IMG/VR virus record: IMGVR_UViG_3300002225_000002
Length of the DNA stretch: 64,000 nt
Source: a virus
Strand: one strand, 5' to 3'
Shown here: one piece after another, positions 15,538 to 61,120 of the stretch
Numbering within the stretch: position 1 is the stretch's first letter
Layout of the letters: every line of letters starts with the position of its first letter
Program-made: the position numbers and the translations under genes
Notes under the pieces: model-generated
The model's input: only the letters and a program-made list of their open reading frames with translations
The model's database searches: none
Told to the model about the DNA's origin: nothing

Positions 15538-15882
15538 ATGAGACTTATAGAACTTTTCGAGACAAACGACAAATACTTTTCAGCCACCAATGAATTGGAT
15601 GCTGAGTTGAACCCTGAATCATCTTCTTATAAAGAAGAAGAGGAATCTAAGGCTAAAAAGAAAGCCAAAGATAATAAAGGGGGCACGCCCGTAGTCACGG
15701 ATGATGTTGATAACGAAGAAGAGGATTGGACCTCTACTCCAGTCGTAGGTGATATGCAATCTGCTGGATATCGAGGAAGAGAAGAGGCTAAAGCTAATGC
15801 TGGTATGCCACATGACAAATACCAACGATTCGACCCTGACTATTTCGTCCAAGATACCCCAGATGTTCCTACTCCGCTATAG
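15538..15882 (+). CDS. Putative head internal protein, 114 aa (start MRLIELFE)
   Basis: CTS-like N-terminus, acidic, own late-like promoter; the upstream part of the ORF-track call overlaps minus-strand genes. Confidence 0.55.
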   Translation: MRLIELFETNDKYFSATNELDAELNPESSSYKEEEESKAKKKAKDNKGGTPVVTDDVDNEEEDWTSTPVVGDMQSAGYRGREEAKANAGMPHDKYQRFDPDYFVQDTPDVPTPL

Positions 15883-16623
15883 AATCTTATCTAAAGCGGC
15901 AGCCACAGAGGCAGCTAAGTCAGAATCGTACTTATCGCCATCTTCCTGCAATGAATCCATGTTGCTTAAGGCCCACGTCCAGTAAGTAATAGGTATTTCT
16001 ACCATAGGCTTACCGACATGTTTACCAAACGTCATATTTTCATATATAATAGGCGCTTCTAACCACTCATAGATCTCTTCAAGATTATATTCATGAATCT
16101 GCCCTAAAGCCTTCATCATTTCTACTTGCTTCTCGAACACTTTACCTATGATGGCGTTATGCATAGCAGTGTCGGTTTCATAATCATTTCTTTTTATGTT
16201 CGCCCCGAAGAAATGATTCAAGTATGGCAATTTATAATTAGTCATGCCCAAACCTAACGCATCAAGCTTCTTACTTATTCTACTAACGCATATCAATTTT
16301 TTACCGGATAACATTTTACTGCCATTACCGTTAATCATGCCTGCATGAAAAGTTGAATTACACATTACAACGTATTCATTCACGTCAGGTATAACGCCAT
16401 CTAACTCATGAAGTCTCTTATCGCCTAACATACTTTCAGTAATGTCATGTAGGTATGAAATTTCTGGCGTAATAGGAACATCAGCTTTACAATAAGATGT
16501 CATATTATCCCACTTACCAGTGGATGACTTATATCCTACGCATAATGCTATGACTTGGTCTTGTTTGAAGTCAAGTCCAGTTGTTTCGGTATTAACTATT
16601 GTTACATTATCAAAGTTTATCAT
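15877..16623 (-). CDS. Exodeoxyribonuclease X-like DEDDh protein with degenerate active site
   Basis: IVNTETTGL, PITPEISYLHDITESMLGDK, VMCNSTFH, and C-terminal TFGKHVGK...YWTWAL align with ExoX-type proteins. Confidence 0.7.
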   Translation of the reverse strand: MINFDNVTIVNTETTGLDFKQDQVIALCVGYKSSTGKWDNMTSYCKADVPITPEISYLHDITESMLGDKRLHELDGVIPDVNEYVVMCNSTFHAGMINGNGSKMLSGKKLICVSRISKKLDALGLGMTNYKLPYLNHFFGANIKRNDYETDTAMHNAIIGKVFEKQVEMMKALGQIHEYNLEEIYEWLEAPIIYENMTFGKHVGKPMVEIPITYWTWALSNMDSLQEDGDKYDSDLAASVAAALDKIL

Positions 16624-16774
16624 TTTTTAGTCTTTCAATTAAGTTTTCTGTGCTCTCAGTAAGCTCTTCGCACTGAGTAGCTATACCGAAGTATCCTTCG
16701 GCAGATAATATTTCATACATTCCAGCTATGAACTTTTTATGTCGTTCTAACTCTGCAATAACGTCTTCTTCCAT
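16610..16774 (-). CDS. Small hypothetical protein, 54 aa (not in ORF track)
   Basis: MEEDVIAELERHKKFIAGMYEIL...; stop overlaps the start of the next gene; weak RBS. Confidence 0.3.
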   Translation of the reverse strand: MEEDVIAELERHKKFIAGMYEILSAEGYFGIATQCEELTESTENLIERLKNDKL

Positions 16775-16840
16775 AATAAATAAGCTCTAGGTATGTTTTA
16801 TGGTGCGTATTTTACCACACCACGACTTTTTTGTAAAGAC

Positions 16841-17335
16841 TTATCCAAATATAAAGGATTTAAGCTTGCACCACCAACAAGGAACATAACTTTTAGATGT
16901 CTGGTGAATACGTTCCGGTTTTTTGGTTATAGTTTCATTGGTTTCTATTTCAACCCAGCATCCGCTATCGTATTCCTCATTTATTAACCAATACGACGTC
17001 TGATTTTCAGCATCTCTATCGTCTTTGGCATACACTTCCTTACAAATGAAATCTTCTTTCTCATATGACCTGAATGAATGCAAGACCATGGCGTATTTTT
17101 TCAGGCCTCGTAATGTATTCTCGAAGTCGTCTATGTTCTCACCATCTACCTCTTCGATATTTCTCACCTTCAGTACGAAAGTTTTCCCATGTCTCATTTT
17201 TCCATCATTTTCAACATCAATCTGTAATCCTGCGGCTACGTAATCCGCATCAATACCAACCATATCTACCGATTTACATTTCATTTCTATTTTTTTACCG
17301 CCCCACCATGTGGACAGTACGATTATAGATCTCAT
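16841..17335 (-). CDS. Hypothetical protein, 164 aa
   Basis: SD GGAG; long ORF. Confidence 0.55.
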   Translation of the reverse strand: MRSIIVLSTWWGGKKIEMKCKSVDMVGIDADYVAAGLQIDVENDGKMRHGKTFVLKVRNIEEVDGENIDDFENTLRGLKKYAMVLHSFRSYEKEDFICKEVYAKDDRDAENQTSYWLINEEYDSGCWVEIETNETITKKPERIHQTSKSYVPCWWCKLKSFIFG

Positions 17336-17351
17336 TCTTTGTTCTCCACGT

Positions 17352-17375
17352 AAAAAACCGCACTAGGCGGTTTTT
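17352..17375 (-). terminator. Rho-independent terminator (bidirectional shape)
   Basis: AAAAACCGC-ACTAG-GCGGTTTTT. Confidence 0.7.
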
Positions 17376-17391
17376 GTTCATAAAGTAAGTG

Positions 17392-17970: not shown

Positions 17971-18005
17971 GTGTTTCTCCGTTGGGATATGTATTTGATG
18001 AGTTC

Positions 18006-18034
18006 ACTATATAATCTTTTACACTTACCGTCAA
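18006..18034 (-). promoter_or_regulatory. Sigma70-like promoter
   Basis: TTGACG-N17-TATAGT. Confidence 0.6.
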
Positions 18035-18062
18035 CACTTTTATCTAAAAGCCCATCTTTTCT

Positions 18063-18455: not shown

Positions 18456-18456
18456 C

Positions 18457-18624: not shown

Positions 18625-18637
18625 TTCCCTTCTCCGT

Positions 18638-19873: not shown

Positions 19874-19896
19874 AGTATTCTCCGTTAAGAAGCATA

Positions 19897-19925
19897 ATAC
19901 TATTCTATTTTAAAGTTGTTGTCAA
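19897..19925 (-). promoter_or_regulatory. Sigma70-like promoter
   Basis: TTGACA-N17-TAGTAT. Confidence 0.6.
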
Positions 19926-19928
19926 ATA

Positions 19929-37828: not shown

Positions 37829-38719
37829 CTACCAACTAATATACCACTGTAGAGTATCCATGGTAACTGGGTTAACTTGGATAATAAAATTGTATCCTAA
37901 ACTAATAAAATACTGTTGGATCGTATCGATTTGTAACTTCACAGCTTTATCATCAACAAGACCTGCCCACACTTCATAATAATGAGAAGGATCTACATTA
38001 ACATTATACATAGAAGACTGTGTAGTAGTGGTTATAATAGCATTAGAGCCACCTACACCTACGTCACCTACGATGATAGCTGTTGAGTTTGTGCTGTAGT
38101 TTCTGCCGCCGTTAAGGATGCTAATTTCAACTACGGAATTATCTGCTGGGTCTAATTCGATTGTTCCTATGAAACCTGAACCTGTTGATTCTGGATCTAA
38201 TATAGTAACGTATGGAGTGTCTAAGTAACCTGTGCCACCAACGGTGATAGTAATACCTAAAACATCGAAAGGCGCAACATCACTTACTGCACTAACAACA
38301 CCTTCGAATAAAATTCCAGTAGCGCCTAGGGCATGTGTTACGTCTACAACATCACCAACTTCATAATCAGAACCTCGGTCACTGATATTGAAACCGATAA
38401 CCGCACCAGTAGTTAAATCTACTAGAGGAATAGCTGCAAAACCTGTACCGGCTGTTGACGTGATAGCTACCGTAGGGGAACTTTCTATGTATTGAGATCC
38501 GCCGTCAAGAACCATGATAGATTCAATTCCGTTAGGAGTCGTAATAGGAGTTCCGCCATTGATAGTAATTTCTAATGGTGCCGTGCCTGTACAATTATTT
38601 ATAGTGTCTAAGATTTGTTGTTCTATAGCGCAAATTTCCGCATAGATAACTCTATCATTCCTAGCTTTTAACCTAGCATCGACAGCTGGCAAAAATCCAC
38701 TTCCAGAACAACCACTCAT
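37829..38719 (-). CDS. Virion structural protein with GxGY repeats, 296 aa
   Basis: GGSQY, RGSDY, GGTGYLDTPYVTI, GGRNY repeats resembling those of 34367-36154. Confidence 0.6.
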   Translation of the reverse strand: MSGCSGSGFLPAVDARLKARNDRVIYAEICAIEQQILDTINNCTGTAPLEITINGGTPITTPNGIESIMVLDGGSQYIESSPTVAITSTAGTGFAAIPLVDLTTGAVIGFNISDRGSDYEVGDVVDVTHALGATGILFEGVVSAVSDVAPFDVLGITITVGGTGYLDTPYVTILDPESTGSGFIGTIELDPADNSVVEISILNGGRNYSTNSTAIIVGDVGVGGSNAIITTTTQSSMYNVNVDPSHYYEVWAGLVDDKAVKLQIDTIQQYFISLGYNFIIQVNPVTMDTLQWYISW

Positions 38720-39045
38720 CCTATATCCCTCTTAGCTGTATCAGTTGCCATCTGACCGACGACGTCCTGATTCATTTCGTTATTTCCTGCGCCAAGATCT
38801 TGTTCAGCTTCATTACCAATAACCAACTCTTCTGGAGTAGCGCTAGTAATAAAGGGACTCTGAACAGCAATACTTGCAAGTGACTCAGCATCAACATTTT
38901 GTCCCATATTATTCAAATACTGTACAGCATATTGAGTAGGGATATTGTCATGTCCTTTTGATTTCAACACGGAAATCATAGACGACAAAGCCGACATAAT
39001 ATCGTCGGCTGAATCGTTTTCTTTAATGATCTGATATAAACGCAT
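38716..39045 (-). CDS. Putative head-associated protein, 109 aa
   Basis: CTS-like start MRLYQIIKE. Confidence 0.55.
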   Translation of the reverse strand: MRLYQIIKENDSADDIMSALSSMISVLKSKGHDNIPTQYAVQYLNNMGQNVDAESLASIAVQSPFITSATPEELVIGNEAEQDLGAGNNEMNQDVVGQMATDTAKRDIG

Positions 39046-40629: not shown

Positions 40630-41100
40630 CTATTTATCAAAAATAGGCGCATTGATATCTATTCTTAGTTTACTAAGAATCTTCTTAGCATCCTTCATTC
40701 TATCAACTGCTTCGTTCAATCTATCTTCAGCAACCATCACTGCGCACATATTATCTGATGTGGCAATTGTATTACTGTAGACTAGAGTATCGTATTTATA
40801 CTTACCGTACTCATGGTCCGCTTTTACGATGTCGGAAATATTCTTATGTGGTGATTTTAACTTAACTTGGACGATAAGGAATGCAGTATCTAGACTATAT
40901 AGATTCTTACATACGCTATACTTACCAAGATGAATGTCGTAACCGAGACTAGTAGAGTGAATGACATATTCGCCAACGCTAACACCGTCCTTGATCTTCT
41001 CTTCCAATTGGTCTAACTGATAAGTTTTGATCTTTTGTTCCAGCAACTGAACTGTTTCCACGATAGTTTCCTTTTTAATTAATCCATTATGTGTATTCAT
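40630..41100 (-). CDS. Hypothetical protein, 156 aa
   Basis: Operon context. Confidence 0.55.
   Translation of the reverse strand: MNTHNGLIKKETIVETVQLLEQKIKTYQLDQLEEKIKDGVSVGEYVIHSTSLGYDIHLGKYSVCKNLYSLDTAFLIVQVKLKSPHKNISDIVKADHEYGKYKYDTLVYSNTIATSDNMCAVMVAEDRLNEAVDRMKDAKKILSKLRIDINAPIFDK
40631..40638 (-). promoter_or_regulatory. Late-like promoter GATAAATA
   Basis: 27 nt upstream of ATG 40603. Confidence 0.55.
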
Positions 41101-41738
41101 CGAGTCCTGCCCGTTTTTGGACCTGGTTTCTCGTTCTTTCTGTGTCGTTTGATTATCTGATTCGGAGTGGTACTTCCATCACGAGACATCGCTTTACACG
41201 TCATCGGCGTAGGTGACCCAATCTCTTCACCCATAGCTTCATCTTCTATCCCAGCTAACTGTCTAATACGATCTATCTCCGCCATGGCATCATCCCTATT
41301 GGTGATTGGCGCGTTAGGTATATCAGGCATATCTGAAATAGAAATATGCTGTCCGTCATCTGTTTGCATGGTCGTTTTATCGCCCATCATAGATACGCTT
41401 GAAATCTTGCTGTCTCCACTACCAGTAGAAACCATATCTCCACTTTGTAGTGCTGCCAAGTTAACCATTTCGTCATCTTGGTCTTGGTTCGCCATAGGAT
41501 CTTGTGTGCCTTGTCTAGCCGCAGTGTATGCGTTACCTTCCATGGCAATTTTACTATGAAGTATAGCTTTCACTTTAGGAGTATCGTTAGCATCAATAGC
41601 GTCTTTTAGATCGGTGTAGTCACTAAATGACATTTGCCTTAATAACTCTCTAGCCTTTGAAGAATCAACTCCGTAAGTCTGAGATAAAATTGATGATACA
41701 TCCTCGTTTAATATTCCCTTTACGATCCTATCGAACAT
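41097..41738 (-). CDS. Putative head-associated protein, 213 aa
   Basis: ILNE, AMEG and EIDRIRQLAGI motifs. Confidence 0.55.
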   Translation of the reverse strand: MFDRIVKGILNEDVSSILSQTYGVDSSKARELLRQMSFSDYTDLKDAIDANDTPKVKAILHSKIAMEGNAYTAARQGTQDPMANQDQDDEMVNLAALQSGDMVSTGSGDSKISSVSMMGDKTTMQTDDGQHISISDMPDIPNAPITNRDDAMAEIDRIRQLAGIEDEAMGEEIGSPTPMTCKAMSRDGSTTPNQIIKRHRKNEKPGPKTGRTR

Positions 41739-42031
41739 TACTTCTTTCTCCTATTGATAATAACCAACTTTCTAGACGCTGGATTTATACGTTTTGTCTT
41801 CTTAGCTTTTTTAACTAATCGTCTTCCGTATTTCTTCTTCGTCTTTTTAAGGCTTACGCTCTTACCAATGTCCAAGGGCAGACTACACTGCTCTGGACTG
41901 GATACTACGCGACCTTTTCTAAGGCCACTAGTACATCTGAATTTCTTTTTTAGCTTAGTGCCAGTACGACCCCATACTAAAGACTCATCGATGTCTTCAC
42001 TTTCACTCAATATCTCCGCTATCAACATCAA
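41738..42031 (-). CDS. Small basic protein, 97 aa
   Basis: MLIAEILSE start, KFRCTSGLRKGRVV, K/R-rich. Confidence 0.55.
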   Translation of the reverse strand: MMLIAEILSESEDIDESLVWGRTGTKLKKKFRCTSGLRKGRVVSSPEQCSLPLDIGKSVSLKKTKKKYGRRLVKKAKKTKRINPASRKLVIINRRKK

Positions 42032-42419: not shown

Positions 42420-42442
42420 CTTCCATTCCCTATTTATCAAGT

Positions 42443-45393: not shown

Positions 45394-45401
45394 GATAAAT
45401 A
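45394..45401 (+). promoter_or_regulatory. Late-like promoter GATAAATA
   Basis: 23 nt upstream of ATG 45425. Confidence 0.55.
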
Positions 45402-45424: not shown

Positions 45425-45988
45425 ATGATCATTTCAGAAATCGTAGACAGAGAAGGTTCTAGCCTTGACTACAGAACAGGCGGAGACCATATTAATTTAC
45501 CAGATGGCTCTATAGCGCAGACTTGCCCACAGTGTAAGGGTAGCGGTAAAGAGGGAATCAGCAGACCTTTACAGAGAAATAATAACGAATTTATGCAAGG
45601 TGGAGACACCAACCCTACTAAGATATGCACCAATTGTCATGGTAAAGGTTACACCGACAAAGTAGAGGGTAAACTATCCATGGGTTATAATCCAGATGAT
45701 TATGAGAGCATTAAAGACTTCAAAGCTGGACATCCAGAAATATACCAATATATTCTAGATAATAAGAAAGGTAACCTTAACGCTAAGCAAGCAATTATCG
45801 AGTTGAAAAAGAATGGCTCATTAAGCGTAGAAAGATTCAGAAAAATAGAAGGTGCCATGAACAACAAAGCTAATGACATTAGTGATGATGCTGGCATAAG
45901 AGCAGCCAGTAAAATGAAGACTGACAAAAGGTGGAACGATAAGACCTACAGTAGAACAGCAGGCGGCCATCGCGGTAGACACAAATAA
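45425..45988 (+). CDS. DnaJ-type zinc-finger protein with CTS-like N-terminus
   Basis: CPQCKGSG and CTNCHGKG; starts MIISEIVDRE. Confidence 0.6.
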   Translation: MIISEIVDREGSSLDYRTGGDHINLPDGSIAQTCPQCKGSGKEGISRPLQRNNNEFMQGGDTNPTKICTNCHGKGYTDKVEGKLSMGYNPDDYESIKDFKAGHPEIYQYILDNKKGNLNAKQAIIELKKNGSLSVERFRKIEGAMNNKANDISDDAGIRAASKMKTDKRWNDKTYSRTAGGHRGRHK

Positions 45989-49315: not shown

Positions 49316-49822
49316 CTACTCAAAAATCAATCCAATATCTAAAGGATTAGGTATTTTAGTATGGTCTTTAACGAACAATGCACATAAAGGTGTATCTCCG
49401 TCTTCAACTGGGACAACTAAAATGTTACCTGTCTTCAGTTTAGGGAAAAACCATTTCACGTCAGAGTACACGTCCATCATAACAACTTCTTTTGATTCAG
49501 GAACGAAATGCTTCAAAGGATTAAACAATACGGTATGGAAACCTCTATCATTTAAGCTAGTCAATGGCATAATTTCCATTGCGCTATAATCTTCATCGCA
49601 TACCATCACCGACCAATCTAAAGGCATCTTAACTGTGTACTTGCCTATAGAAAGAACTACCATTGGAGAATAGAAACTCTCCAAGTAGATCAGCGGAAGA
49701 AAGAAGAAATCTATGTAGTCGGTCTCTGTACAATCTAATACACAAAATCTTAAGTCATCTACCACTTCTGGTACGTGGTCTATGTCATACATTTTATTTT
49801 CAACTGTTAGAATCTTACTCAT
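49316..49822 (-). CDS. Hypothetical all-beta protein, possibly a degenerate Hint fold
   Basis: Alternating hydrophobic beta pattern, 168 aa; coupled to UvsW. Confidence 0.5.
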   Translation of the reverse strand: MSKILTVENKMYDIDHVPEVVDDLRFCVLDCTETDYIDFFFLPLIYLESFYSPMVVLSIGKYTVKMPLDWSVMVCDEDYSAMEIMPLTSLNDRGFHTVLFNPLKHFVPESKEVVMMDVYSDVKWFFPKLKTGNILVVPVEDGDTPLCALFVKDHTKIPNPLDIGLIFE

Positions 49823-51282: not shown

Positions 51283-51747
51283 CTAACCCACCGTCGCGTC
51301 TTCAAGGCCAGCACATCTAAGTCTAACTACATTGTTTATTTGCCAATGTTTAGCTTCTAGACCTTTATGTATTGCTAGGTATTTGTTTCGCAACAGAGCG
51401 ACTTCATTAATCAATAGAGCTTGGTCGATAACTTCATCATCGCCGTCAACATACTTCTCAGCATCTCTAGACGTTAATGCTTTATCATAACCTTGGAAGT
51501 AGTGCTTAAAGCGCCTACCTCTAATTCTCTTCATTTCGATATTCAGAAACTCAAGAACAGCTTCTATTTCTTGAAGCTGACTGAATCTATGTTCTGTTAT
51601 TCCTGGCATCATAGCTGCATGCCTTTCCAATGATACACCCGACATAGAAAGTTGTTTCTTGGCGTCTTCTAATTCATTCTCGAAGAACGTTAGGAAGTTA
51701 GGAACTTCCGCAACACTACCAGTTACTTTTCTATACCATTTGCTCAT
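51283..51747 (-). CDS. uvsY: Recombination mediator UvsY-like
   Basis: ALTSRDAEKYVDGD, IHKGLEAKHWQINNVVRLRCAGLED; between uvsX and uvsW. Confidence 0.75.
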   Translation of the reverse strand: MSKWYRKVTGSVAEVPNFLTFFENELEDAKKQLSMSGVSLERHAAMMPGITEHRFSQLQEIEAVLEFLNIEMKRIRGRRFKHYFQGYDKALTSRDAEKYVDGDDEVIDQALLINEVALLRNKYLAIHKGLEAKHWQINNVVRLRCAGLEDATVG

Positions 51748-52025
51748 TATAAATACCCCACGGCATTCATCATGGCTTGCACAAACAACGACGACCTATG
51801 TACTGCGTTAGGAACTCTGTTACGCAATTGCAACAGTCTTCTATTAACGCCAAGTTCATCGCACAATCTCGCTTGTAATACAGTAAGATTCGCTGGTGTT
51901 GCTACGTGCTCTACGACTTCAACATTGCCAGTGTCTATCTCTTGTTTTATTTCAACAAGTAATCGTCGGACTTCTTCGATATCTTTTTCAGTTATCGCCA
52001 CGTCAAGGTCTTCAAAAATTTTCAT
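51747..52025 (-). CDS. Hypothetical protein (start MKIFEDL)
   Basis: SD AAGGAG. Confidence 0.5.
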   Translation of the reverse strand: MKIFEDLDVAITEKDIEEVRRLLVEIKQEIDTGNVEVVEHVATPANLTVLQARLCDELGVNRRLLQLRNRVPNAVHRSSLFVQAMMNAVGYL

Positions 52026-52236
52026 TATCTTCTCCTTCATCTGACAACTCAAAGTAAGTAGATATGGCAACAGCAAGAGGCTGATCGAAATCAACATCGG
52101 TAGAGAAACCATCCGACGTGTTATACACATCGAATAATTCAACTAATCTGTCACAGATATCTATATACTGGGAATCATCTACGTTTTCTTTAACAATCGC
52201 CCAAATTTCAGATATAAATGCAGAATCATTAGTCAT
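52012..52236 (-). CDS. Hypothetical acidic protein, 74 aa
   Basis: Operon context downstream of uvsX. Confidence 0.55.
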   Translation of the reverse strand: MTNDSAFISEIWAIVKENVDDSQYIDICDRLVELFDVYNTSDGFSTDVDFDQPLAVAISTYFELSDEGEDNENF

Positions 52237-53290
52237 CTAATTCACCAACATCAACAACTTCTAAGTCGTCAGCTGTGAATTCACCCATGACCACGTCTAG
52301 CAATTCTGGACCCCAGTTCTTTCTGAACTCAATGAATTCTTCACCTGTTTGTCTACTAACATAGCGATAGCGGTTGCCTTGCTTTTGTAACAGACCAGAT
52401 GTTTCAAACATATCGAACAGACCTGAGTATGGGTCCAATCCTCCATCCCAAGGGATGTTAATTTTTACGCTTTCAAAAGGTTTAGAGAAACGACTCTTAA
52501 CTACTTTACAGTCAGCTTTTATACCTTGCACAGAAGTAGTTTTCTTACCATCGGAATCTTCTTTCAACTTACGTTTCTTAGAAGCAACTACAATGGAAGA
52601 TGCGAAGATAGGTCCATTACCACCTGAGATTTTGTCATCTGGATCAAACATGTCCTGTGATGCGTATGTGTGGTTTGTTGCTACGAATCCAACGTTGTGC
52701 TCGGCAATAAGGTTGATAACGTTTTTAACTAACGCGTTTAACTGCTTAGCCTTACGTCCCATGTCGCCTTTCATGTCGCCTTTCTCGAACTGATTAATTT
52801 CAGTAGGAGTTAGTAGCATACCTAAGCTATCACAAACGAATAACACTTTAGGTCTATCTTCACGATCCATAGAACCATAATCAGCATTGTATGCCTTCAT
52901 AAAGTCTGATATGATGCTTGCAACATCATCGATCATGCATACGCCAAGTTTCATAAGTTTGTCTTCGCTGGTATCTACACCTAGCGCTTGCAACCAATCT
53001 TCATCGAGTGCGTTTTCTGTATCCAGAACAACACAAAAAATGCCTTGTTCTTGTGCATGCTTCACAATATTACCGGATACTATCAAAGATTTCCCACTGC
53101 CACTCTCACCAGCAAAGCAACATACTTTACTTAGAGGAATGCCTCGGTGGAAATCGCCAGAAATAAGATAGTTTAATGCATGGCTTCCAGTACTTATCCA
53201 AGTATCTGGATCGTTAAAGCCAGAACTAATACCTGGAATGGCCTTAGTTAAGCTTTTTCTATATTTTGTAAAATCAATAGGGGCTGTCAT
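52229..53290 (-). CDS. uvsX: RecA-like recombinase UvsX
   Basis: STGSHALN, AGESGSGKS, LDTENA, DSLGML, GRKAK, TNHTY; start moved to MTAPIDF. Confidence 0.93.
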   Translation of the reverse strand: MTAPIDFTKYRKSLTKAIPGISSGFNDPDTWISTGSHALNYLISGDFHRGIPLSKVCCFAGESGSGKSLIVSGNIVKHAQEQGIFCVVLDTENALDEDWLQALGVDTSEDKLMKLGVCMIDDVASIISDFMKAYNADYGSMDREDRPKVLFVCDSLGMLLTPTEINQFEKGDMKGDMGRKAKQLNALVKNVINLIAEHNVGFVATNHTYASQDMFDPDDKISGGNGPIFASSIVVASKKRKLKEDSDGKKTTSVQGIKADCKVVKSRFSKPFESVKINIPWDGGLDPYSGLFDMFETSGLLQKQGNRYRYVSRQTGEEFIEFRKNWGPELLDVVMGEFTADDLEVVDVGELDD

Positions 53291-53310
53291 TACAACATCC
53301 TTATAAGAGG

Positions 53311-53335
53311 ATGCGGGGCTATCCTTGCCCCGCAT
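53311..53335. other. Stable 9-bp hairpin between gp32 and uvsX (attenuator or processing site)
   Basis: ATGCGGGGC-TATCCTT-GCCCCGCAT; no U-tract on the minus strand. Confidence 0.5.
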
Positions 53336-53360
53336 ATTTTAGTCGCCGTTTGGCGTTAGA

Positions 53361-54341
53361 TTAAGAGTTGCCGCGAATCTTGGCTAAGATATCTTGAGCC
53401 GATTGACCGCTAGACGGTGTAGACACTGGAGTTGTATCCTGTGCTGCTGGAGTTGATTCCTGTGCAGCTGGAGTTGAATCCTGTGCAGCTGGAGTTGAAT
53501 CCTGTGCTGCTGGAGCAGAGCCAGTCGCTTTACGAGCGCTAGTGGTGTATTCGAAACCGTAAGGCTTGTAGAACTCAGCAAATTGCTCTGGATCGTACAA
53601 CTCACCTTCAACAGACGCTTCGAACATGTCGAAGATAGCAGCTAGTGCTTCTGGAGATGGTTTAGCTGGAAGATATGTTTCCAAATCAACAAGACCATAC
53701 TTTTCTACAGCTTCTGCTTCAATTTCAGTCAAAGCAGTCTCTTTTCTTGCCCATACAGAGTTACCGTAATCGGCGTATTGCCCGTTGTTACCTTTAGTAA
53801 GACGGAAGTCTGTGCCTAATAGGTAATCAGTTGGGATATTCTCCATGTCTGGGTCTAACAGTGCATTCTTAATTGGACCGAAAATCTGTGGACCAATGAT
53901 GAATTTACGGATAGGGTTCTCTGGCGCTTCGTCTTCCGAAATAGCGGAGTCACGAACAAATCCTTGGAACATATAGGTACGTTTTTTCCAGTACTTACGT
54001 GCTAAGGCTTCTTGCTCTTTGTCACCCTTGAACCAAGGACGAATTTCTTGTAAGATTGGGCAGGTTTCACCCCACATTTCCATGCATGGTACTTGGATAG
54101 TGATGACTTTATTCTCATCATGCCCTTTAATACCTGGAAATTCCAATTTTATTACTTGACGCTCTTTCCAAAAGTATGTATTATCTTGGTTACCGTCTGG
54201 TAGGAAGCGTAGTGTTGAGGTGTCGCCAGTTTTGGCGTCCCAGAATGGAAAAGTGAGACCATCGCCTCGTGATTTACCTTTACCTTGGGATTTTTCGTCT
54301 GCTTTTTGTAATTTTGCACGTAGTTCAGCTAATGTAGCCAT
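53361..54341 (-). CDS. Single-stranded DNA-binding protein (T4 gp32-like)
   Basis: LRFLPDG, QVPCMEMWGETCPI, YWKKRTY, GTDFRL, YADY; start moved to MATLAELR. Confidence 0.88.
   Translation of the reverse strand: MATLAELRAKLQKADEKSQGKGKSRGDGLTFPFWDAKTGDTSTLRFLPDGNQDNTYFWKERQVIKLEFPGIKGHDENKVITIQVPCMEMWGETCPILQEIRPWFKGDKEQEALARKYWKKRTYMFQGFVRDSAISEDEAPENPIRKFIIGPQIFGPIKNALLDPDMENIPTDYLLGTDFRLTKGNNGQYADYGNSVWARKETALTEIEAEAVEKYGLVDLETYLPAKPSPEALAAIFDMFEASVEGELYDPEQFAEFYKPYGFEYTTSARKATGSAPAAQDSTPAAQDSTPAAQESTPAAQDTTPVSTPSSGQSAQDILAKIRGNS
53426..53509 (-). repeat. Four tandem 21-bp coding repeats (TPAAQ[D/E][S/T])
   Basis: Plus strand CTGGAGTTG(T/A)(A/T)TCCTGTGC(T/A)G x4. Confidence 0.9.
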
Positions 54342-54420
54342 TATAATTATTCCTTTAATTATTCCAGTTCTTTTTCTAGATATATTCCAGATAGGTCGGT
54401 CCTTCTTGGACGTTCCCATA

Positions 54421-54463
54421 AGCTCTTTTCGTATACTGATGATTCGAGCTATCCCTCATCAGT
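54421..54463 (-). promoter_or_regulatory. Putative H-type RNA pseudoknot in the gp32 leader
   Basis: S1 ACUGAUGA/UCAUCAGU (8 bp); S2 AGCUC/GAGCU (5 bp), with the 5' arm in the S1 loop. Confidence 0.5.
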
Positions 54464-54473
54464 TTATGCGGCT

Positions 54474-54502
54474 ATTATACCACAAAAGCGTGCGTTACAC
54501 AA
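54474..54502 (-). promoter_or_regulatory. Sigma70-like promoter P1 of gp32
   Basis: TTGTGT-N17-TATAAT with extended TG. Confidence 0.7.
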
Positions 54503-54572
54503 TGGTTATTGTTGCAACTTTATAATATTTATTATATACTTACTATAATGTGTCATAACGCCGCTGAGCGCT

Positions 54573-54601
54573 ATTATAACACACCCAACGACTCAACACA
54601 A
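54573..54601 (-). promoter_or_regulatory. Sigma70-like promoter P2 of gp32
   Basis: TTGTGT-N17-TATAAT with extended TG, 99 bp upstream of P1. Confidence 0.7.
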
Positions 54602-54608
54602 CCCCTAA

Positions 54609-56285
54609 TTACTCTTGAGGTAATAGATGGTTAGGTATTTCATTTCTTCCTATACCCCAACTCTTTTCAAGTTGCTGTACGTCAGCTCTTAGCTTATTCA
54701 TGTTTATCATGATCTGCTTCTGATGCCTAGCATTAGACTGTTTATCTTTAAGCTTATGAGCAATTTTCATGGCTCTTCTAGCAGCTTCGAAGCGATCCAC
54801 TGCTTGCCTGAATTGCATAAGAGTAGAATTATGTACTTCGTCGCTACTCATGCGCTCCACGCCTTCTTCAACGCCTTCGCCTTGTTTCATTTTCTGCTGA
54901 ATAGCTTTAAGTCTAGTTCCAAGGTCCATCAATTCATCATTAGCTTCACGCTGGAATGACTTAGCCCCTTGTTTAGTTCTAGACATAGCATCACCCATAC
55001 CTTCATTAATGAAGTTATCGTATACGTTATCTTCGATATCTGTTAACTTCTCGCTTAACTTACGTACGGACTCAGAAATAAGATCTTGTGGCTCATCTTC
55101 AGATACCATAGTAATGTTCTCTAGAACGTTCTTAACTACAGACTTCTCGAAATCACTAATGTCACCTTCAGAAATCATCTTGCCACCGATAGAACCGATG
55201 TACGTGGCTAATTCTGGATTCTCATTGATAGATAGTGCCACAGCTTTCAATCTGTGTCCCATTTTAACAGTACTACTTTCAAAGGTAACAGCAGCACTCT
55301 CAGTAAACTTAAAAGATGTTGCTTTTACTCTTTCCAGAGAAGATTCTTCAATACGTCTTAATTTCATGTTTCTTTCCTGTACAATGCTGCTGACTACAGG
55401 CAATACTGCTTCGAATTTCTCATCGAATTTCTTAACAGTGAACATATCTCTATAATCAATGCCGTCGTCGTCTTCAGCTATAAAATTTTCTTGTTCAGCA
55501 ATTCTTTGAGTAGCACTAGTGTAACTCTTCTTGCCGTAAATTGATTTAAGGTCACCAGCAATAGCATTGATACTCTCTCTAAGAGCAGCAATCACTTCAG
55601 TGGTGTCTTCGGTTACTAATTTATTTCTTTTAGAGTAAACGTAGAACTCTCTAAGTTCTAACATTTTTCCAGTGAGGTTTACAATACTCTCGCCAATAAC
55701 GTCATGGCTAGATCCGCCGTTAGCGAAGTGACGCGCCATTGCTCTAGCACCGTTCAAGTTGGTGTGAGGAAACTTATATCTTTCCCCGTTGCTTTCCAAA
55801 AAGATACTTTGGATATTTCTAGATCTTGCGCCTCTAACGCTTTCATCTACTTCTTTCTTATGCTTGACTACCAAACAAACATTTTCGATCATCTGTCTGC
55901 TGGTTTTTTTGGTGCCGTACATGGCAGATTCTTGGACGCTTTCCATTTGATCCCCTTTCTTTGTCTGGTATGAAAAATCTTTAGGTGTTATATGCTTACC
56001 GTATTCTCTTATCGTGAATTTATACATGTATTCTTTCGCAACCGCTTTAACAGCCCACATTGCTTTCTCAAAATCACTAAGAGGTATGTTACCGTTCTTA
56101 TTGAAATTGACCTCTTCGTCTTCTTCATCAACATGGATGAGAAGATTAGGGTCTTCAACGTAGAATCTGGATGCTAACTCAGCATCCACAGTAGCCATAC
56201 CGCCATCATCGTACATCTTGATTTGGTAACCTTGGCTTTTTAGCGCTTTAAATACACGCTCTTTTACACGTTTCGGATCGATCAC
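54609..56285 (-). CDS. Putative head/prohead-core protein, 558 aa
   Basis: Multiple VQES/LRES/IEES/ISES/INEG motifs; preceded by GATAAATA; next to terminase. Confidence 0.55.
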   Translation of the reverse strand: MIDPKRVKERVFKALKSQGYQIKMYDDGGMATVDAELASRFYVEDPNLLIHVDEEDEEVNFNKNGNIPLSDFEKAMWAVKAVAKEYMYKFTIREYGKHITPKDFSYQTKKGDQMESVQESAMYGTKKTSRQMIENVCLVVKHKKEVDESVRGARSRNIQSIFLESNGERYKFPHTNLNGARAMARHFANGGSSHDVIGESIVNLTGKMLELREFYVYSKRNKLVTEDTTEVIAALRESINAIAGDLKSIYGKKSYTSATQRIAEQENFIAEDDDGIDYRDMFTVKKFDEKFEAVLPVVSSIVQERNMKLRRIEESSLERVKATSFKFTESAAVTFESSTVKMGHRLKAVALSINENPELATYIGSIGGKMISEGDISDFEKSVVKNVLENITMVSEDEPQDLISESVRKLSEKLTDIEDNVYDNFINEGMGDAMSRTKQGAKSFQREANDELMDLGTRLKAIQQKMKQGEGVEEGVERMSSDEVHNSTLMQFRQAVDRFEAARRAMKIAHKLKDKQSNARHQKQIMINMNKLRADVQQLEKSWGIGRNEIPNHLLPQE

Positions 56286-56309
56286 AGTATAATTCCCTTT
56301 ATCTGCTTC

Positions 56310-56317
56310 TATTTATC
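56310..56317 (-). promoter_or_regulatory. Late-like promoter GATAAATA
   Basis: 24 nt upstream of GTG 56285. Confidence 0.55.
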
Positions 56318-56322
56318 AATTT

Positions 56323-57903
56323 TTACATGATAAGTGGCAATGGGATTCTACCATCGTCTTCATCGTAATCATCATCAATGTTACTATTAATGGTGCCGTA
56401 AGTGTCTTCGTCCCACCTTGAGATGCTCTCAACCATCCTAATGAATACTAGCGCAGAAGACACCAAGTCATCCTTACAGCCCTCTTTGGCTTGATAGGAG
56501 TTACCCCTAGCGATGTAGTTCTTCAATTCGGTTATCATTGGAGACGAATGTATTGTTAACTTGCCACTCTCGAACCATTGCTTGAACCTAGAGCACGACT
56601 TCAGTTTGTTTTTACTGGTCGTAGTGAAACCTTTACGCTTACGATTACCACCATCACTCTTACGTTCAGATAAGAAAGTACCTGGAAAATTCTCCTCCCC
56701 AGTGTCCCTGATAATAACGAGTGCCGCTTCACCTAATGTGTTGGATTCTAATGACCAATAGATCTCAGGTTTGCCGTGTTCCCATATCTCAAGTAAAATA
56801 TTTCTTAACACTTTCATTTGTCCTTCAATGGACGTCTTGTTATGATACCACTCGCCCACTTGTTCCATCGATGGCATTTCCCATATGGTTATCGCAGCGT
56901 TATCGCCACCAGTACCCATACACGGATCTAATGAAACGACATATGTTTGATCTTCTCTGATTTGTTTGAACCAACGTACTTGTCCTGACTTACGGAAAGG
57001 CTCTTTAGTCTTCGCATCTGATAATTTAACAGAGTTTACTAACGTTTCTTCGAATACAATAAATTCGGCCAAATGCTCACGTCTGAATCGTTCATCGCCA
57101 ATTTTATTTCTTTCTATTCTTGCCCACTCTTCATCACGTTCTGGATGATCTTCGTATGTAGCAAAGTATGACCCGAATCCGTTCATGCCGGTATCGTTAG
57201 GATATAAGTTACCGTATTCGTCATGTTTCTCTTGGGCTTGATGCCAAATTTCAGCGAACTGATCTGTATCTGAGTTAGGCGTACTTGTTAGGATTACTTT
57301 ACCACCCGTAGACAATGTAGGTGACAGTGAAGTCCATAATTCTTTTGCCACTCTTGGTGGATCAACGAACGCAAATTCATCGAGATAGATAAGGGATATG
57401 GATTTACCACGACCCGTATTTATTGTTGTTGTGGTTGACACGATTGTTGAACCGTTATCAAACTTCATTGATTTTTTATTGTACTCTCGCACACCGGCCC
57501 TAATGTAATCCGGTAAGTTCTCGTAGGTATATCTAACCCTATCCATGATGTCTATTGCATCCGAACCTGTCTTAGACGCAACTAGTATATATGAATCCGG
57601 CATGAACATAGCATACCATAAAAGATACCCTGCCGCGCACGTAGTTTTTCCTAACTGTCTTCCCAGTAAAGATATCTGCTGTCTATGTTTTACATAGGAC
57701 GCGATAAGGTCTTTTTGATATTCATATGGATCAAAAAGTAATGAGCCTAATATTGGATGCTGTATCATCATGAAGTTCTCCATGAAGTATAAAGGCCCGT
57801 CTACCGGATCGGTACATTTTTTAAAATGTTCTAGTTGTTCTGGTGTATATTCACTAAGCTGATTTGGTTTCTTAATGAATTTAGTATCATCTATGCCTGC
57901 CAT
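56323..57903 (-). CDS. Terminase large subunit (T4 gp17-like)
   Basis: YQ motif, GRQLGKTT, RGKSISLIYLDEFAF, TSTPN, SLDPCMGTGGD, KDDLV. Confidence 0.95.
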   Translation of the reverse strand: MAGIDDTKFIKKPNQLSEYTPEQLEHFKKCTDPVDGPLYFMENFMMIQHPILGSLLFDPYEYQKDLIASYVKHRQQISLLGRQLGKTTCAAGYLLWYAMFMPDSYILVASKTGSDAIDIMDRVRYTYENLPDYIRAGVREYNKKSMKFDNGSTIVSTTTTINTGRGKSISLIYLDEFAFVDPPRVAKELWTSLSPTLSTGGKVILTSTPNSDTDQFAEIWHQAQEKHDEYGNLYPNDTGMNGFGSYFATYEDHPERDEEWARIERNKIGDERFRREHLAEFIVFEETLVNSVKLSDAKTKEPFRKSGQVRWFKQIREDQTYVVSLDPCMGTGGDNAAITIWEMPSMEQVGEWYHNKTSIEGQMKVLRNILLEIWEHGKPEIYWSLESNTLGEAALVIIRDTGEENFPGTFLSERKSDGGNRKRKGFTTTSKNKLKSCSRFKQWFESGKLTIHSSPMITELKNYIARGNSYQAKEGCKDDLVSSALVFIRMVESISRWDEDTYGTINSNIDDDYDEDDGRIPLPLIM

Positions 57904-57924
57904 AATTATCTCCGCAGTTTATTT

Positions 57925-57951
57925 TATTTATCACAAAAGCCTTGATAAATA
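57925..57951. promoter_or_regulatory. Back-to-back late-like promoters
   Basis: TATTTATC (57925-57932, minus, toward terminase) and GATAAATA (57944-57951, plus, toward the GIY-YIG gene). Confidence 0.6.
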
Positions 57952-57971
57952 GGGGTTTTAGGGATATAACT

Positions 57972-58244
57972 ATGGAAAACAACGGTTTCGTATACATAAT
58001 TTCATGCGGAGACGCATATAAAATTGGAGTTGCTAAGAACCCTGAGCATAGGCTTAGGCAGTTACAAACAGGCAATAGCGAAGAGCTTTTATTGGAATAT
58101 ACTGAAGGGAAAATAAATCCATACGCAGTTGAAAAGGAACTTCATAGGAGTCTACAAAAATACAGAACTAAAGGGGAATGGTTTAAAGGGCTGTCCTTTA
58201 ACGATATTAGAATAGCCCTTATGCTTGTCACAGAATATGACTAA
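57972..58244 (+). CDS. Small GIY-YIG nuclease (T5orf172/MUG113-like)
   Basis: GFVYII...YKIG...PEHRLRQLQTG...EKELH...KGEWF; start moved to MENNG. Confidence 0.82.
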   Translation: MENNGFVYIISCGDAYKIGVAKNPEHRLRQLQTGNSEELLLEYTEGKINPYAVEKELHRSLQKYRTKGEWFKGLSFNDIRIALMLVTEYD

Positions 58245-58274
58245 TATACTCTCGTAAGAGTAAACTGTATTTCG

Positions 58275-58514
58275 TTAAGCTTCATTTTCCATATCCTGTA
58301 ATCTACTATAATAGTCTGGCATTTCTGCCAAATGATCAAGAGCTATTTCCATTGCTATGGATTCGTCACCAGTATGTTCTTTTTCTACCTGTGTGCCAAT
58401 GGCCAGCTGACGCGTTATAACCTCTAAAGGAACGCCATGTTTACCGGCAACTTCTTCTGCGGACAATGTAGGTTTACCTAGCATATCTGGTTCTATAAAT
58501 TCATATAATCTCAT
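58275..58514 (-). CDS. DUF5661-like protein with CTS-like N-terminus
   Basis: GTQVEKEHT...AMEIALDHLAEMPDYYSRL; starts MRLYEFIE. Confidence 0.65.
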   Translation of the reverse strand: MRLYEFIEPDMLGKPTLSAEEVAGKHGVPLEVITRQLAIGTQVEKEHTGDESIAMEIALDHLAEMPDYYSRLQDMENEA

Positions 58515-58927
58515 TAGTCTTCTACCTGTATAACTGATGCTTGTATAGCCTTCTCACCATTTGCGTGGGCGGCATAAACTCTATGGTTACCGTCAAGAAC
58601 GTAATATTTACCTTCATACAAAACCAGAACTGGTAAATCTCTAGACTTAGCTCCACGAGGGTCAAGGTATTTCTCCGTACCAACAATATCTTTAATAGGC
58701 ACGGTATGTGTTGTAGCTGCCATTGAGGTAGCTTTTTTCCATTTAGTTGGATTATCTGCTATGTCTAGGGTACTTGCTATTTCTCCAACAGTATCATCGT
58801 ACAAATCAAATATATGACCGAACAGCCTATCATCACCAGTTATATGCGGTAATGGATTTTTTAATGTACGGCCTTCATCTTCGCCATATCGACTTTCGTA
58901 TTCTTTTAGTATCTCTGTGATCTTCAT
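58514..58927 (-). CDS. ParB/Sulfiredoxin-like domain protein with CTS-like N-terminus
   Basis: VPIKDI...LPVLV...YYVLDGNHRVYAA; starts MKITEILKE. Confidence 0.7.
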   Translation of the reverse strand: MKITEILKEYESRYGEDEGRTLKNPLPHITGDDRLFGHIFDLYDDTVGEIASTLDIADNPTKWKKATSMAATTHTVPIKDIVGTEKYLDPRGAKSRDLPVLVLYEGKYYVLDGNHRVYAAHANGEKAIQASVIQVED

Positions 58928-58938
58928 TCTGTCTCCAT

Positions 58939-58962
58939 AAAAAAGGGGGCCGTTAAGCCCCC
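58939..58962 (-). terminator. Rho-independent terminator
   Basis: Minus strand GGGGGC-UUAACG-GCCCCC-UUUUUU. Confidence 0.75.
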
Positions 58963-59002
58963 ACGTACAACGGGTCGGTAGCGAATCTTCCCAGTGTTCT
59001 AA

Positions 59003-60712
59003 TTAGCCTCTAGGTTTTCTAGGCGCTTCATTACGTTTAGTGAAATTGCCGCCTTCTTCCATGCCTTCGTAGTCATCATGACCAGTAGCAGCTCTGAAAT
59101 TAGCTTTAGTAGGAGACATATCACCTTTCATTTTCTGAACGCTTGCTTCACAGCCTGCTTCATCAACTTCTGGCTTATTACGTCTTTCTTTCTTAACTGG
59201 CTCTTCACTACGTCTACGTTCAACTTTACCGCCAGACTTTTTACTTCCTAGGCCATAACCACGTGACCTCATAGATGAAGGTCCACCAGCAATGCGCATT
59301 CCGCCAATTTCGTTTAACTCAGCTTCAATCATAGATTCATAATCTTCACAGAAAGAATCAAATGCTTCTGAAAGTCTATTGTGGATGTCATCAGTTGACT
59401 CTTCTACTTGAGTAACAGGATCGCTATTACCTAGAGGATTATCTTTGAAATCACCACCAGTATTACCGATGTGAGATGCTGCGTTACTTGCTTGGCCTGT
59501 AGGGAAACCTTCTCCGCCATTATAAGGTGAAGTGCCTCTTAGATGGCCTTCTGTATCATCTGGTTGAGTTTGGTATCCAGACTCTCCGCCCCAGTTATCA
59601 TCTTCTTCTTCAAGGCCTTGACCCATTACTTTATTATGCACTCTAAGCAACATATCAGGACTCATATTAACTAATGAGTCAGCATTGTATTGTGCTTTAG
59701 CAGAAGACATTCCGCTGTCTTGCATAGCCATAATCTTAGCAACCATAGATGAACTATCTTGAACGTTATGGTCCATAGTTCTAGCTGGTGCCATGTCGTT
59801 AGTTGGGTCCATAGAACCAAAGTCGGCATCCATTTCTACTTCGTCATCGCCATAACCTAAATCAGGTTCGTCTTCTTGACCAAATTCATCACCACTAAAG
59901 TCATCATCGAATTCATCGCTAAATTCATCTTCACCCATAAACTTATCTGCAACTTTACCTGCAACTGCGCCTGCTGCGGCAGCGGCTAATGGATTTTCAT
60001 CTAACTCATTTTCAACGCCTTGTGCTGGTGCCGGAACAGGAGCTGGTTCTTCTGGAGCAGGAGCTGCAACAGGAGCTGGTTCTTGTTCTGGAGCAGGAGC
60101 TTCAATAGGAGCTGGCTGTTCATTACCCATAACTTTATTATATACAGCAGTGATACTATCTAAAGCCATACCCATTAATTCTTCAATATCATGACTATCT
60201 ACGTCTGAAGACATTCCGCCTTGTTGCATAGTGTCTATTTTTTGGACCATCATAGATGGATCAACTGTATGGTCAGTAGGAACTTCACCAACATTAGGAA
60301 TACTTTGTACCATTGAAATCTCTGGCTCCTCGCCACTCTGAGTGAAATCTAGTTCTAGCTCAGTATCGTCTACGCCGCCGTCTTCGAAATCATTCTCTCC
60401 AAGATCAACAACTATAATTTCTTCTCCGCCTGACACTTGATCTGGCACAGGAACTGCTGATTCTGCAGAATCACCAACTAAACATTTATCGCCATATTGA
60501 CCATGACCATCGTCATACGGTGTTTGACATTCAGCTTCAGCCATAGTCTCATCGTATTCAATTTCTTGTGTGTGGGATTCAGCATCAGTCTCTTCTATGT
60601 CTTGAGCCTGTCCACCCATAACTCCAGCAAATCCACCAGCACAATTCTCATCAAGCTTAGTTTTTTCACTAGGAGTAACGCCAGCTAACTCTAGTAATTT
60701 ATTAATATCCAT
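59003..60712 (-). CDS. Highly acidic low-complexity scaffold/core-like protein, 569 aa
   Basis: MDINKLLELAG start, repeated LDEN/LEEE/VEES/LNEI, a 42-aa duplication and PAP linkers. Confidence 0.55.
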   Translation of the reverse strand: MDINKLLELAGVTPSEKTKLDENCAGGFAGVMGGQAQDIEETDAESHTQEIEYDETMAEAECQTPYDDGHGQYGDKCLVGDSAESAVPVPDQVSGGEEIIVVDLGENDFEDGGVDDTELELDFTQSGEEPEISMVQSIPNVGEVPTDHTVDPSMMVQKIDTMQQGGMSSDVDSHDIEELMGMALDSITAVYNKVMGNEQPAPIEAPAPEQEPAPVAAPAPEEPAPVPAPAQGVENELDENPLAAAAAGAVAGKVADKFMGEDEFSDEFDDDFSGDEFGQEDEPDLGYGDDEVEMDADFGSMDPTNDMAPARTMDHNVQDSSSMVAKIMAMQDSGMSSAKAQYNADSLVNMSPDMLLRVHNKVMGQGLEEEDDNWGGESGYQTQPDDTEGHLRGTSPYNGGEGFPTGQASNAASHIGNTGGDFKDNPLGNSDPVTQVEESTDDIHNRLSEAFDSFCEDYESMIEAELNEIGGMRIAGGPSSMRSRGYGLGSKKSGGKVERRRSEEPVKKERRNKPEVDEAGCEASVQKMKGDMSPTKANFRAATGHDDYEGMEEGGNFTKRNEAPRKPRG

Positions 60713-60733
60713 TAAAATATCCTTTATTTTATT

Positions 60734-61120
60734 TTAGCTATTGCTGCGTATGTATTTTTCCAGCATCCAAGCTTCGTTGTTAGATCTGGCACCAATATTC
60801 CATTCCGTAATAGAATTTGGATCTATGCGCCTATCTTTATCATAATCGTATCTACGATCATAAATCGTTGTAGCTGCAGTATCATATTCATGACCTTCAC
60901 CGTACTCAGTAGTGTCATCCTGATATTGCAGTTCCACTTCCCACATGACATTAACATCCGATTGAGGATCATCATAGAAGGATTGTGGCTCACCAAACAT
61001 ATTAACTAATGCTTGATATGGTACTTGAATTTTTCCTTTAAGAGATGTACCAGAGACGTCTACGTATTCCGTATCTAACCCTACCACTCTACCTTCAGTT
61101 ATAAATTCATTTAGTCTCAT
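60734..61120 (-). CDS. Putative internal head protein (start MRLNEFITE)
   Basis: CTS-like N-terminus; start overlaps the upstream stop. Confidence 0.6.
   Translation of the reverse strand: MRLNEFITEGRVVGLDTEYVDVSGTSLKGKIQVPYQALVNMFGEPQSFYDDPQSDVNVMWEVELQYQDDTTEYGEGHEYDTAATTIYDRRYDYDKDRRIDPNSITEWNIGARSNNEAWMLEKYIRSNS

Follow-up and report, generated by a model that had tools for sequence, protein, structure and literature searches.

A short N-terminal leader resembling the T4 capsid-targeting sequence on unrelated proteins of a PA5oct-like jumbo phage

Why should proteins that have nothing else in common begin with the same few residues? This question is raised by a stretch of 64,000 nucleotides (nt), hereafter the window, from the virus record IMGVR_UViG_3300002225_000002, in which seven genes between positions 15,538 and 61,120 encode proteins that start with variants of one short leader. 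A preliminary description of the window had compared this leader with the capsid-targeting sequence (CTS) of bacteriophage T4 and had proposed that its bearers are packaged in the head and possibly injected. The leader was examined here across the whole genome and in related phages. It probably marks a set of head-packed proteins, and we favor, with some reserve, a T4-type capsid-targeting propeptide as the explanation of the shared N-terminus. Compared with T4, the leader is shorter, and the cargo would be larger and change faster.

The window corresponds to bases 254,499-318,498, minus strand, of the 347,232-bp IMG/VR record (completeness estimate, 94%), whose full-genome coordinates are marked G000 below. 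The major capsid protein was 82% identical to that of Pseudomonas phage PA5oct and approximately 66% identical to those of PBECO4/121Q-type jumbo phages. A PA5oct match was found for 120 of the 577 called proteins, and the gene order of the window closely parallels that of PA5oct. With 8 kb of window sequence as the query, megablast detected no near-identical phage DNA among 50,697 phage records. This phage is a member of the PA5oct/RaK2 group of jumbo myoviruses, and its head is built with T4-type parts.

The leader and its bearers

All seven N-termini named in the preliminary description were located, and their translations were checked. The genes are as follows (lengths in amino acids, aa; pI, isoelectric point; evidence is translation unless a search is given).

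15538..15882 (+): acidic 114-aa protein, pI 4.4, leader MRLIELFE
38716..39045 (−): acidic 109-aa protein, pI 4.1, leader MRLYQIIKE
41738..42028 (−): very basic 96-aa protein, pI 10.8, leader MLIAEILSE
45425..45988 (+): 187-aa protein with two CxxCxGxG zinc-ribbon motifs, leader MIISEIVDRE
58275..58514 (−): 79-aa DUF5661 protein, leader MRLYEFIE (Pfam, E 1.7e-18, residues 19-78)
58514..58927 (−): 137-aa ParB/Srx-like protein containing DGNHR, leader MKITEILKE (tblastn)
60734..61120 (−): acidic 128-aa orphan protein, pI 4.3, leader MRLNEFITE

The leader comprises 8-10 residues with the consensus M-[RK]-[LI]-x-E-[FIL]-[FIL]-x(0-2)-E. Nearly every leader has [LI]-x-E at its end, and in many a further [LI]-x-E occupies residues 3-5. 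A scan pattern derived from the seven window N-termini, M[RKLIN][LIF].[EQDH][FILV][FILV].{0,2}E, matched 11 of the 577 proteins called genome-wide, compared with 0.13 expected from shuffled N-termini and 0.08 from internal positions, and it matched none of 2283 internal Met positions. Since the pattern was composed after the sequences were known, this enrichment test is partly circular. A pattern-free test was therefore of value, in which all N-terminal 9-mers were clustered by BLOSUM62 score with paralogues excluded. Similar pairs of 9-mers were about twice as frequent as in shuffles, and the largest cluster was the leader group, with eight of its nine members bearing the leader.

Past the leader, no significant mutual similarity among the bearers was found in an all-against-all BLAST comparison. 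The bearers are thus unrelated proteins, as the preliminary description had stated, and common ancestry was rejected as a source of the shared N-terminus. The homology recognized by Pfam or tblastn begins past the leader (DUF5661, residues 19-78; ParB-like, residues 33-136). The leader genes are scattered across approximately 130 kb of the genome, with no bearer in the first 118 kb, a region of many small paralogue families.

Three of the window starts (15538, 42028 and 61120) are ATG codons internal to a longer possible frame. The start at 15538 is preceded, at a distance of 5 nt, by a GATAAATA box that falls within the longer frame, and the PA5oct orthologue is arranged likewise. At 42028, a GGGAG Shine-Dalgarno sequence precedes the ATG by a few bases, and the 128-aa form that begins at 61120 is present in a public protein collection.

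Further bearers and looser cases were found outside the window.

G000 170179: MRFKDLFE, inside the head/tail module
G000 196437: MKLQHIIE
G000 232467: MKIEQVLNE
G000 241461: KTSC-domain protein, MNIFEIVDRE
G000 200577 and G000 231499: looser cases, both MRLLEFN
G000 118823: looser case

The KTSC protein is unrelated to the protein at 45425-45988, yet their leaders are near-identical (MNIFEIVDRE and MIISEIVDRE). The gene at G000 200577-200915 encodes a second ParB-like bearer, and its PA5oct relative, EST35_0140, is a virion protein. Within the window, a 92-aa protein encoded among replication genes at 51747-52025 (−) starts with MKIFEDLDVAITE, a looser version of the leader (compare MKILEFNLTE in PA5oct). 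It has a 55% identical orthologue in R1, a closer relative of this phage retrieved from public assemblies, and it could be either an additional member or a coincidental match.

The searches gave few names to the bearers. PHROGs provided no functional match for ten proteins (the seven window bearers, a 569-aa window protein described below and two proteins outside the window), and Pfam named only DUF5661 and KTSC, in addition to a sub-threshold zinc finger. The protein at 15538-15882 matched neither Pfam nor PHROGs, and that at 60734-61120 matched only itself, with no homologue, among 5.8 billion proteins. No anti-defence homology was detected in the Pfam and PHROGs scans, a dedicated anti-defence library not having been searched. 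The family labels given in the preliminary description fared differently. DUF5661 was borne out by Pfam at 58275-58514. The ParB/Srx label agrees with tblastn matches of residues 33-136 at 58514-58927 to ParB-like nuclease domain proteins of Stenotrophomonas phages, with the leader outside the domain, and has no Pfam match behind it. For the DnaJ zinc-finger label, the two CxxCxGxG motifs at 45425-45988 are present, and the Pfam match to DnaJ_CXXCXGXG (E 0.003) falls below the cut-off. The mention of both basic and acidic proteins was correct: one very basic protein (41738-42028), with a charge comparable to those of the T4 internal proteins, accompanies three acidic ones (15538-15882, 38716-39045 and 60734-61120).

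In the AlphaFold model of the DUF5661 protein, residues 1-10 had predicted local distance difference test scores below 50, whereas the helical bundle scored above 90; the leader is thus modelled as a flexible, loose extension. A Foldseek search of the PDB with this model gave no match with E <3. Nearly all close metagenomic DUF5661 homologues begin with MRLYEF, MRLDEI or MRFSEI. In the T4-like phage Cr30, the DUF5661 protein begins with MKDFKSF, much like T4 IPI, and in Vibrio phage VPs20 a DUF5661 domain is embedded in a DUF2213 head protein.

T4-like head machinery and the virion proteins of relatives

The capsid-targeting sequence carried by T4 internal proteins (IPI, IPII, IPIII and Alt) was reportedly described by Mullaney and Black in 1996 and is reviewed in PMC9026906 and PMC3012670. 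Leaders of this kind span about 10-19 aa. The T4 N-termini, read from NC_000866, are MKTYQEFIAE (IPII and IPIII), MKTFKEF (IPI), MELITELFDE (Alt), MLKEQLIAE (gp22) and MNEPQLLIE (gp21). MRLYEFIE and MRLNEFITE correspond to the IPIII leader minus one or two residues, and MKITEILKE and MRLIELFE are near the Alt leader. The first ten residues of IPIII suffice for packaging; within the T4 sequence, positions 4 and 7 are important to targeting, and positions 8 and 10 to gp21 processing (PMC9026906). The present system resembles that of T4 in several respects. Unrelated proteins share a short leader at the N-terminus, in which an [LI]xE site comes after hydrophobic residues. The phage itself encodes both a gp21-type protease and a scaffold core, and the putative cargo includes basic proteins, acidic proteins and enzymes, with genes that vary and a leader that is conserved. 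In contrast with T4, the leader lacks one or two residues and follows a consensus of its own (MRLxEFIxE versus MKTYQEFIAE), there are at least 11 bearers instead of four or five, and their genes are dispersed. The phage also has a 347-kb genome and belongs to the PA5oct/RaK2 group, not to Straboviridae, and its putative cargo has no homology to the T4 internal proteins. Packaging and cleavage, and injection of some of the proteins, are established for T4; for the present phage they are proposals.

The prohead protease of this phage (G000 160273-160860; Pfam Peptidase_S77, 98 bits) is 37% identical to T4 gp21 (E 3e-27); in PA5oct the prohead protease is gp152. Its gene lies in a T4-like head module that encodes the portal, a small core protein, a larger core protein, the protease, the scaffold and the capsid protein. 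The [LI]xE density of the scaffold is 5.3 per 100 aa, compared with 1.2 in the whole proteome (4.4-fold), as expected if the prohead protease has T4-like specificity. N-termini of the same kind as the leader were also found on the gp67-like protein (MKKSDIINE), the gp68-like protein (...LIINE), the scaffold (MKSTFEKALTE) and the capsid protein (MSKLME|S) of this phage, and the corresponding head proteins of PA5oct, RaK2 and one uncultured relative share this feature. On gels, the capsid protein of RaK2 runs slightly under its predicted mass (PMC3622015), which hints at processing in this clade.

In PA5oct, in RaK2 and in two uncultured relatives, orthologues of the bearers keep the leader despite divergence in the remainder of each protein; those in PA5oct, RaK2 and G001, a complete 342.6-kb uncultured relative, are only about 30-45% identical. 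The PA5oct orthologue of the protein at 15538-15882, EST35_0271, starts with MKIKEIILE (tblastn E 7e-10, with an alignment from residue 1). That of the protein at 38716-39045, EST35_0238, starts with MKIKDILVE and is a virion protein according to tandem mass spectrometry with electrospray ionization (ESI-MS/MS); the G001 orthologue starts with MKISSLLSE, and RaK2 ORF136, at the same place, with MKFRDIVKITE. In RaK2, the leader is carried by ORF136 and the gp67-like protein. The G001 orthologue of the protein at 41738-42028 (44% identical) starts with MQVFEVLQPVEE, and the window gene is flanked by homologues of the PA5oct virion proteins EST35_0234 and EST35_0235. A late cluster of G001 (L097:9776-19525; G001 49776-59525) has the leader on large proteins: a 372-aa cytidylyltransferase-like protein, a 1216-aa protein that combines an HD domain, a poly(A)-polymerase/CCA-type head and an NT5C nucleotidase, and two proteins of 502 and 626 aa without an assigned family.

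The PA5oct virion set consists of 93 proteins identified by ESI-MS/MS and flagged in the GenBank record (PMC7318152). With a pattern fixed beforehand, four of six PA5oct bearers were virion proteins (p=0.022). A broader pattern, picked post hoc, gave eight of ten bearers in virions, compared with 82 of the 402 other proteins (p=1.2e-4). One three-gene late operon of PA5oct contains leader bearers only, two of which were detected in virions; a ninth leader protein of 64 aa shares a late operon with two detected bearers.

The leader could also direct to the prohead core a set of assembly helpers, like T4 gp67, gp68 and gp22, which would be degraded and expelled before DNA packaging or in its course and would be neither retained as cargo nor delivered. 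The gp67-like core protein and the scaffold do have the same kind of N-terminus, and several bearers share with core proteins a very acidic composition or predicted disorder. However, PA5oct counterparts, including proteins of 70-104 aa, are present in purified virions, several bearers contain folded domains that are not scaffold-like (ParB/Srx-like, DUF5661, KTSC and zinc ribbon), and the gene set differs between close relatives, which is unusual for assembly factors. We consider this explanation unlikely, though the best of those that compete with a capsid-targeting propeptide.

Late promoter-like boxes and the remaining alternatives

The GATAAATA box is one base off the T4 late promoter TATAAATA. 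The genes for the tail sheath, baseplate and fibres are preceded by such boxes at a distance of 20-35 nt; 15 were found in the window, compared with 5.7 expected, and a gp55-like late sigma factor is encoded (weak match). A gene was assigned to a predicted late unit when a box lay on the same strand within 4 kb upstream, with no opposing gene between; the promoters are predicted from sequence. All 11 leader genes met this rule, compared with 141 of 566 others (Fisher p=3e-7). An equal frequency of the motif among non-late genes, which the preliminary description had named as evidence against its proposal, was thus not observed with these predicted units. The boxes associated with the window bearers are as follows.

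15525..15532 (+): box 5 nt before the ATG at 15538
40631..40638 (−): box heading the gene string that ends with 38716-39045
42431..42438 (−): box 403 nt upstream of the start of the gene at 41738-42028
45394-45401: box of the gene at 45425-45988
62468..62475 (−): box heading the gene string with 60734-61120, 59003-60712, 58514-58927 and 58275-58514

A box exactly 5 nt before an ATG was seen at four places in this genome, namely window 15525-15540 (+), G000 241448-241463, G000 200913-200928 (−) and G000 183571-183586 (−), and in relatives at G001 57396-57411 and PA5oct approximately 180250-180265 (−). By analogy with T4 promoters of this type, transcription at this spacing would start at the A of the ATG and yield a leaderless late mRNA. 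Since the arrangement at the 15538 gene is conserved in PA5oct, the annotated start of EST35_0271, five codons upstream, is probably wrong.

These features bear on a second alternative, in which the motif reflects late-gene expression and not sorting, either as a 5' coding sequence that aids leaderless or weakly led mRNAs or as a generic amphipathic-helix start. Three leader genes with the box exactly 5 nt before the ATG would give an mRNA without a leader, the second codon is often AGA and the region AT-rich, and a motif that raises abundance could also explain detection in a noisy virion proteome. On the other hand, the same residues are encoded by different codons and are kept across genomes of 32-40% G+C, and most leader genes have an ordinary Shine-Dalgarno sequence or translational coupling. 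Abundant late proteins of the sheath, baseplate and fibres are without the motif, and the motif ends in the presumed protease site [LI]xE. An effect on expression is therefore an improbable explanation of the leader.

A third possibility is that the leader is a tag for timed degradation by the phage's own ClpXP, ClpAP/ClpS or FtsH proteases, or an address for another part of the virion. The phage encodes ClpX, ClpP, ClpS and ClpA homologues, and the Met-basic-hydrophobic start of the leader may loosely resemble one class of signals that ClpX recognizes at N-termini. However, enrichment in virions would not be seen for proteins destined to be degraded, and the T4 CTS and the core head proteins offer a much closer likeness, which makes such a tag very doubtful. 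Finally, chance or composition, which the shortness of the motif and its definition after the fact might suggest, can hardly account for 11 matches versus approximately 0.1 expected, none at 2283 internal Met positions, a group recovered by pattern-free clustering, leaders kept by orthologues and bearers that all lie in predicted late units.

A probable capsid-targeting propeptide in a jumbo phage

The reading of the leader as a T4-type capsid-targeting propeptide draws on its likeness to T4 leaders, the gp21-type protease, the [LI]xE-rich scaffold, the predicted late context, the conservation in orthologues and the enrichment among PA5oct virion proteins. To this extent the first part of the proposal in the preliminary description, a T4-like capsid-targeting sequence, is supported; binding to the core, cleavage after Glu and a location in the head, as opposed to another part of the virion, are inferred. 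In the mechanism envisaged, about a dozen unrelated proteins would be made late in infection with a flexible leader of 8-10 residues, which would dock them on the scaffolding core of the prohead. The prohead protease would then cut after Glu in the [LI]-x-E context and remove the leader, and the mature proteins would presumably stay in the DNA-filled head.

Several observations weigh against this interpretation. A matrix built from the seven window N-termini performed only modestly, with seven virion proteins in the PA5oct top 15 (p=0.03), and showed no shift across the whole PA5oct distribution. The PA5oct virion list is noisy, since it includes ribonucleotide reductase, thymidylate synthase and other enzymes, and it does not separate head from tail. 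Considering the modest matrix result and the noisy list, the link between leader and virion is treated as supported, not strong. The virion data come from PA5oct, a relative, and not from this phage, and EST35_0271, the orthologue of the protein at 15538-15882, is absent from the PA5oct list. The late promoters are inferred from sequence. RaK2 has only two or three leader-type proteins. In G001, the leader is found on large enzymes, an unusual cargo; yet T4 Alt is a packaged enzyme. Lastly, most of 76 uncultured relatives are without a leader-bearing gene near the terminase gene, and the island described next is accordingly lineage-specific.

This variable island, at 58275-61120, is bounded by the conserved large terminase gene and includes a large acidic protein in addition to three of the bearers.

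56323..57903 (−): large terminase subunit, 526 aa (Pfam Terminase_6N/Terminase_6C; 58% identical to PA5oct EST35_0204)
59003..60712 (−): 569-aa protein, very acidic (pI 4.1), with disorder predicted over most of its length, N-terminus MDINKLLELAGV

In R1, whose conserved genes are 69-87% identical to those of this phage, a different set of six genes occupies the corresponding site immediately upstream of the large terminase gene. They encode a protein that starts with MKITDILGE, a papain-like peptidase without a leader, a ParB-like protein (MRLVEFMHK), a protein with MDSIKRLMELAGIV, a protein that starts with MRAREFITE and a DUF5661 protein (MRFSEITE). Five of the six have the leader or an MDxxxLxELAG N-terminus, and two are orthologous to G000 genes located 30-60 kb away. 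In T-even phages, internal-protein loci contain variable gene sets that all keep one leader (PMC3012670, PMC9026906), and the turnover between R1 and the window mirrors these loci.

The positional counterpart of the 569-aa protein is the PA5oct virion protein EST35_0203, which starts with MFNINDILRLAGV, and the R1 gene at the same place has MDSIKRLMELAGIV. A protein atlas search with the 569-aa protein gave no usable match, and its stored model is of low confidence. A second conserved N-terminus, (D/N)I(N/x)(D/K)(I/L)L(R/E)LAG(V/I), is found in three phages on the large acidic protein encoded immediately upstream of the terminase gene; its sites are window 59003-60712 (−), PA5oct 127321-128817, L139:2309-3544 and protein P0006. 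As a family, this second motif (xLxLAG[VI]) was rejected, since it is limited to one orthologous group. The string INDILRLAGIL is also the C-terminal tail of one metagenomic DUF5661 protein.

Two other features were noted at this locus. At 58928-58990 (−), between the genes of the 569-aa and ParB-like proteins and directly before the GGAG ribosome-binding site of the latter, there is a G+C-rich hairpin with a T run after it (GGGGGC...GCCCCC TTTTTT); this element could be a terminator or an mRNA-stabilizing hairpin within the island. The R1 terminase gene is split (L138:2739-5932): its first 87 residues make up an open reading frame of their own, a 370-aa DUF559/MTES_1575 endonuclease gene comes next, and the remainder of the terminase lies in a 560-aa open reading frame, which looks like a homing-endonuclease or intron-type insertion. 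In addition, the exact proteins of 60734-61120 and 58275-58514 are recorded on a 410,284-bp contig in a public protein collection, and the phage genome may therefore exceed the 347-kb record.

Among other systems, phiKZ-like giants (201phi2-1, phiKZ and SPN3US) are also jumbo phages and contain numerous proteins inside the head; a protease related to T4 gp21 removes the propeptides of these proteins by cleavage after Glu (PMC5694885, PMC9026906). They differ in that these propeptides are long and varied, the cleavage motif is S/A/G-x-E and no short shared N-terminal address is known for them; no sign of phiKZ core genes was found in this phage. The Dar anti-restriction proteins of phage P1 are packaged in the head and delivered with the DNA against host defences, the function proposed in the preliminary description, but they are loaded by an ordered pathway of protein-protein assembly without a shared cleavable N-terminal tag (PMC9024508, PMC12810830). 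The Dar proteins have no homology to the proteins described here. In the literature, no paper was found that reports a CTS for the PA5oct/RaK2 group, although the underlying mechanism is textbook T4 biology.

A further step, for which we hold out a tentative case at most, is that PA5oct-like jumbo phages load many proteins by means of a T4-like tag and may inject them with the DNA as first-wave effectors, in a set that turns over fast. Head-packed proteins delivered with the DNA act before phage gene expression, and known ones disarm restriction or reprogram RNA polymerase. Beyond T4 and a few model phages, to our knowledge, head cargo can be found only by virion proteomics. If the leader is a real address tag, the cargo of uncultured 300-400-kb phages of the PA5oct/RaK2 group would become readable from sequence alone. 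Each tagged protein would then be a candidate early effector, and, if the proteins are also injected, the injected effectors could be listed from the genomes of uncultured jumbo phages. The injected set of this phage would include ParB/Srx-like, DUF5661, KTSC, zinc-ribbon, basic and acidic proteins, and that of relatives would include nucleotidyltransferase/HD/5'-nucleotidase enzymes. The tag could also serve to package selected proteins in a jumbo capsid, a use to which the T4 CTS is already put. PA5oct is culturable and under consideration for phage therapy, and the idea is therefore directly testable.

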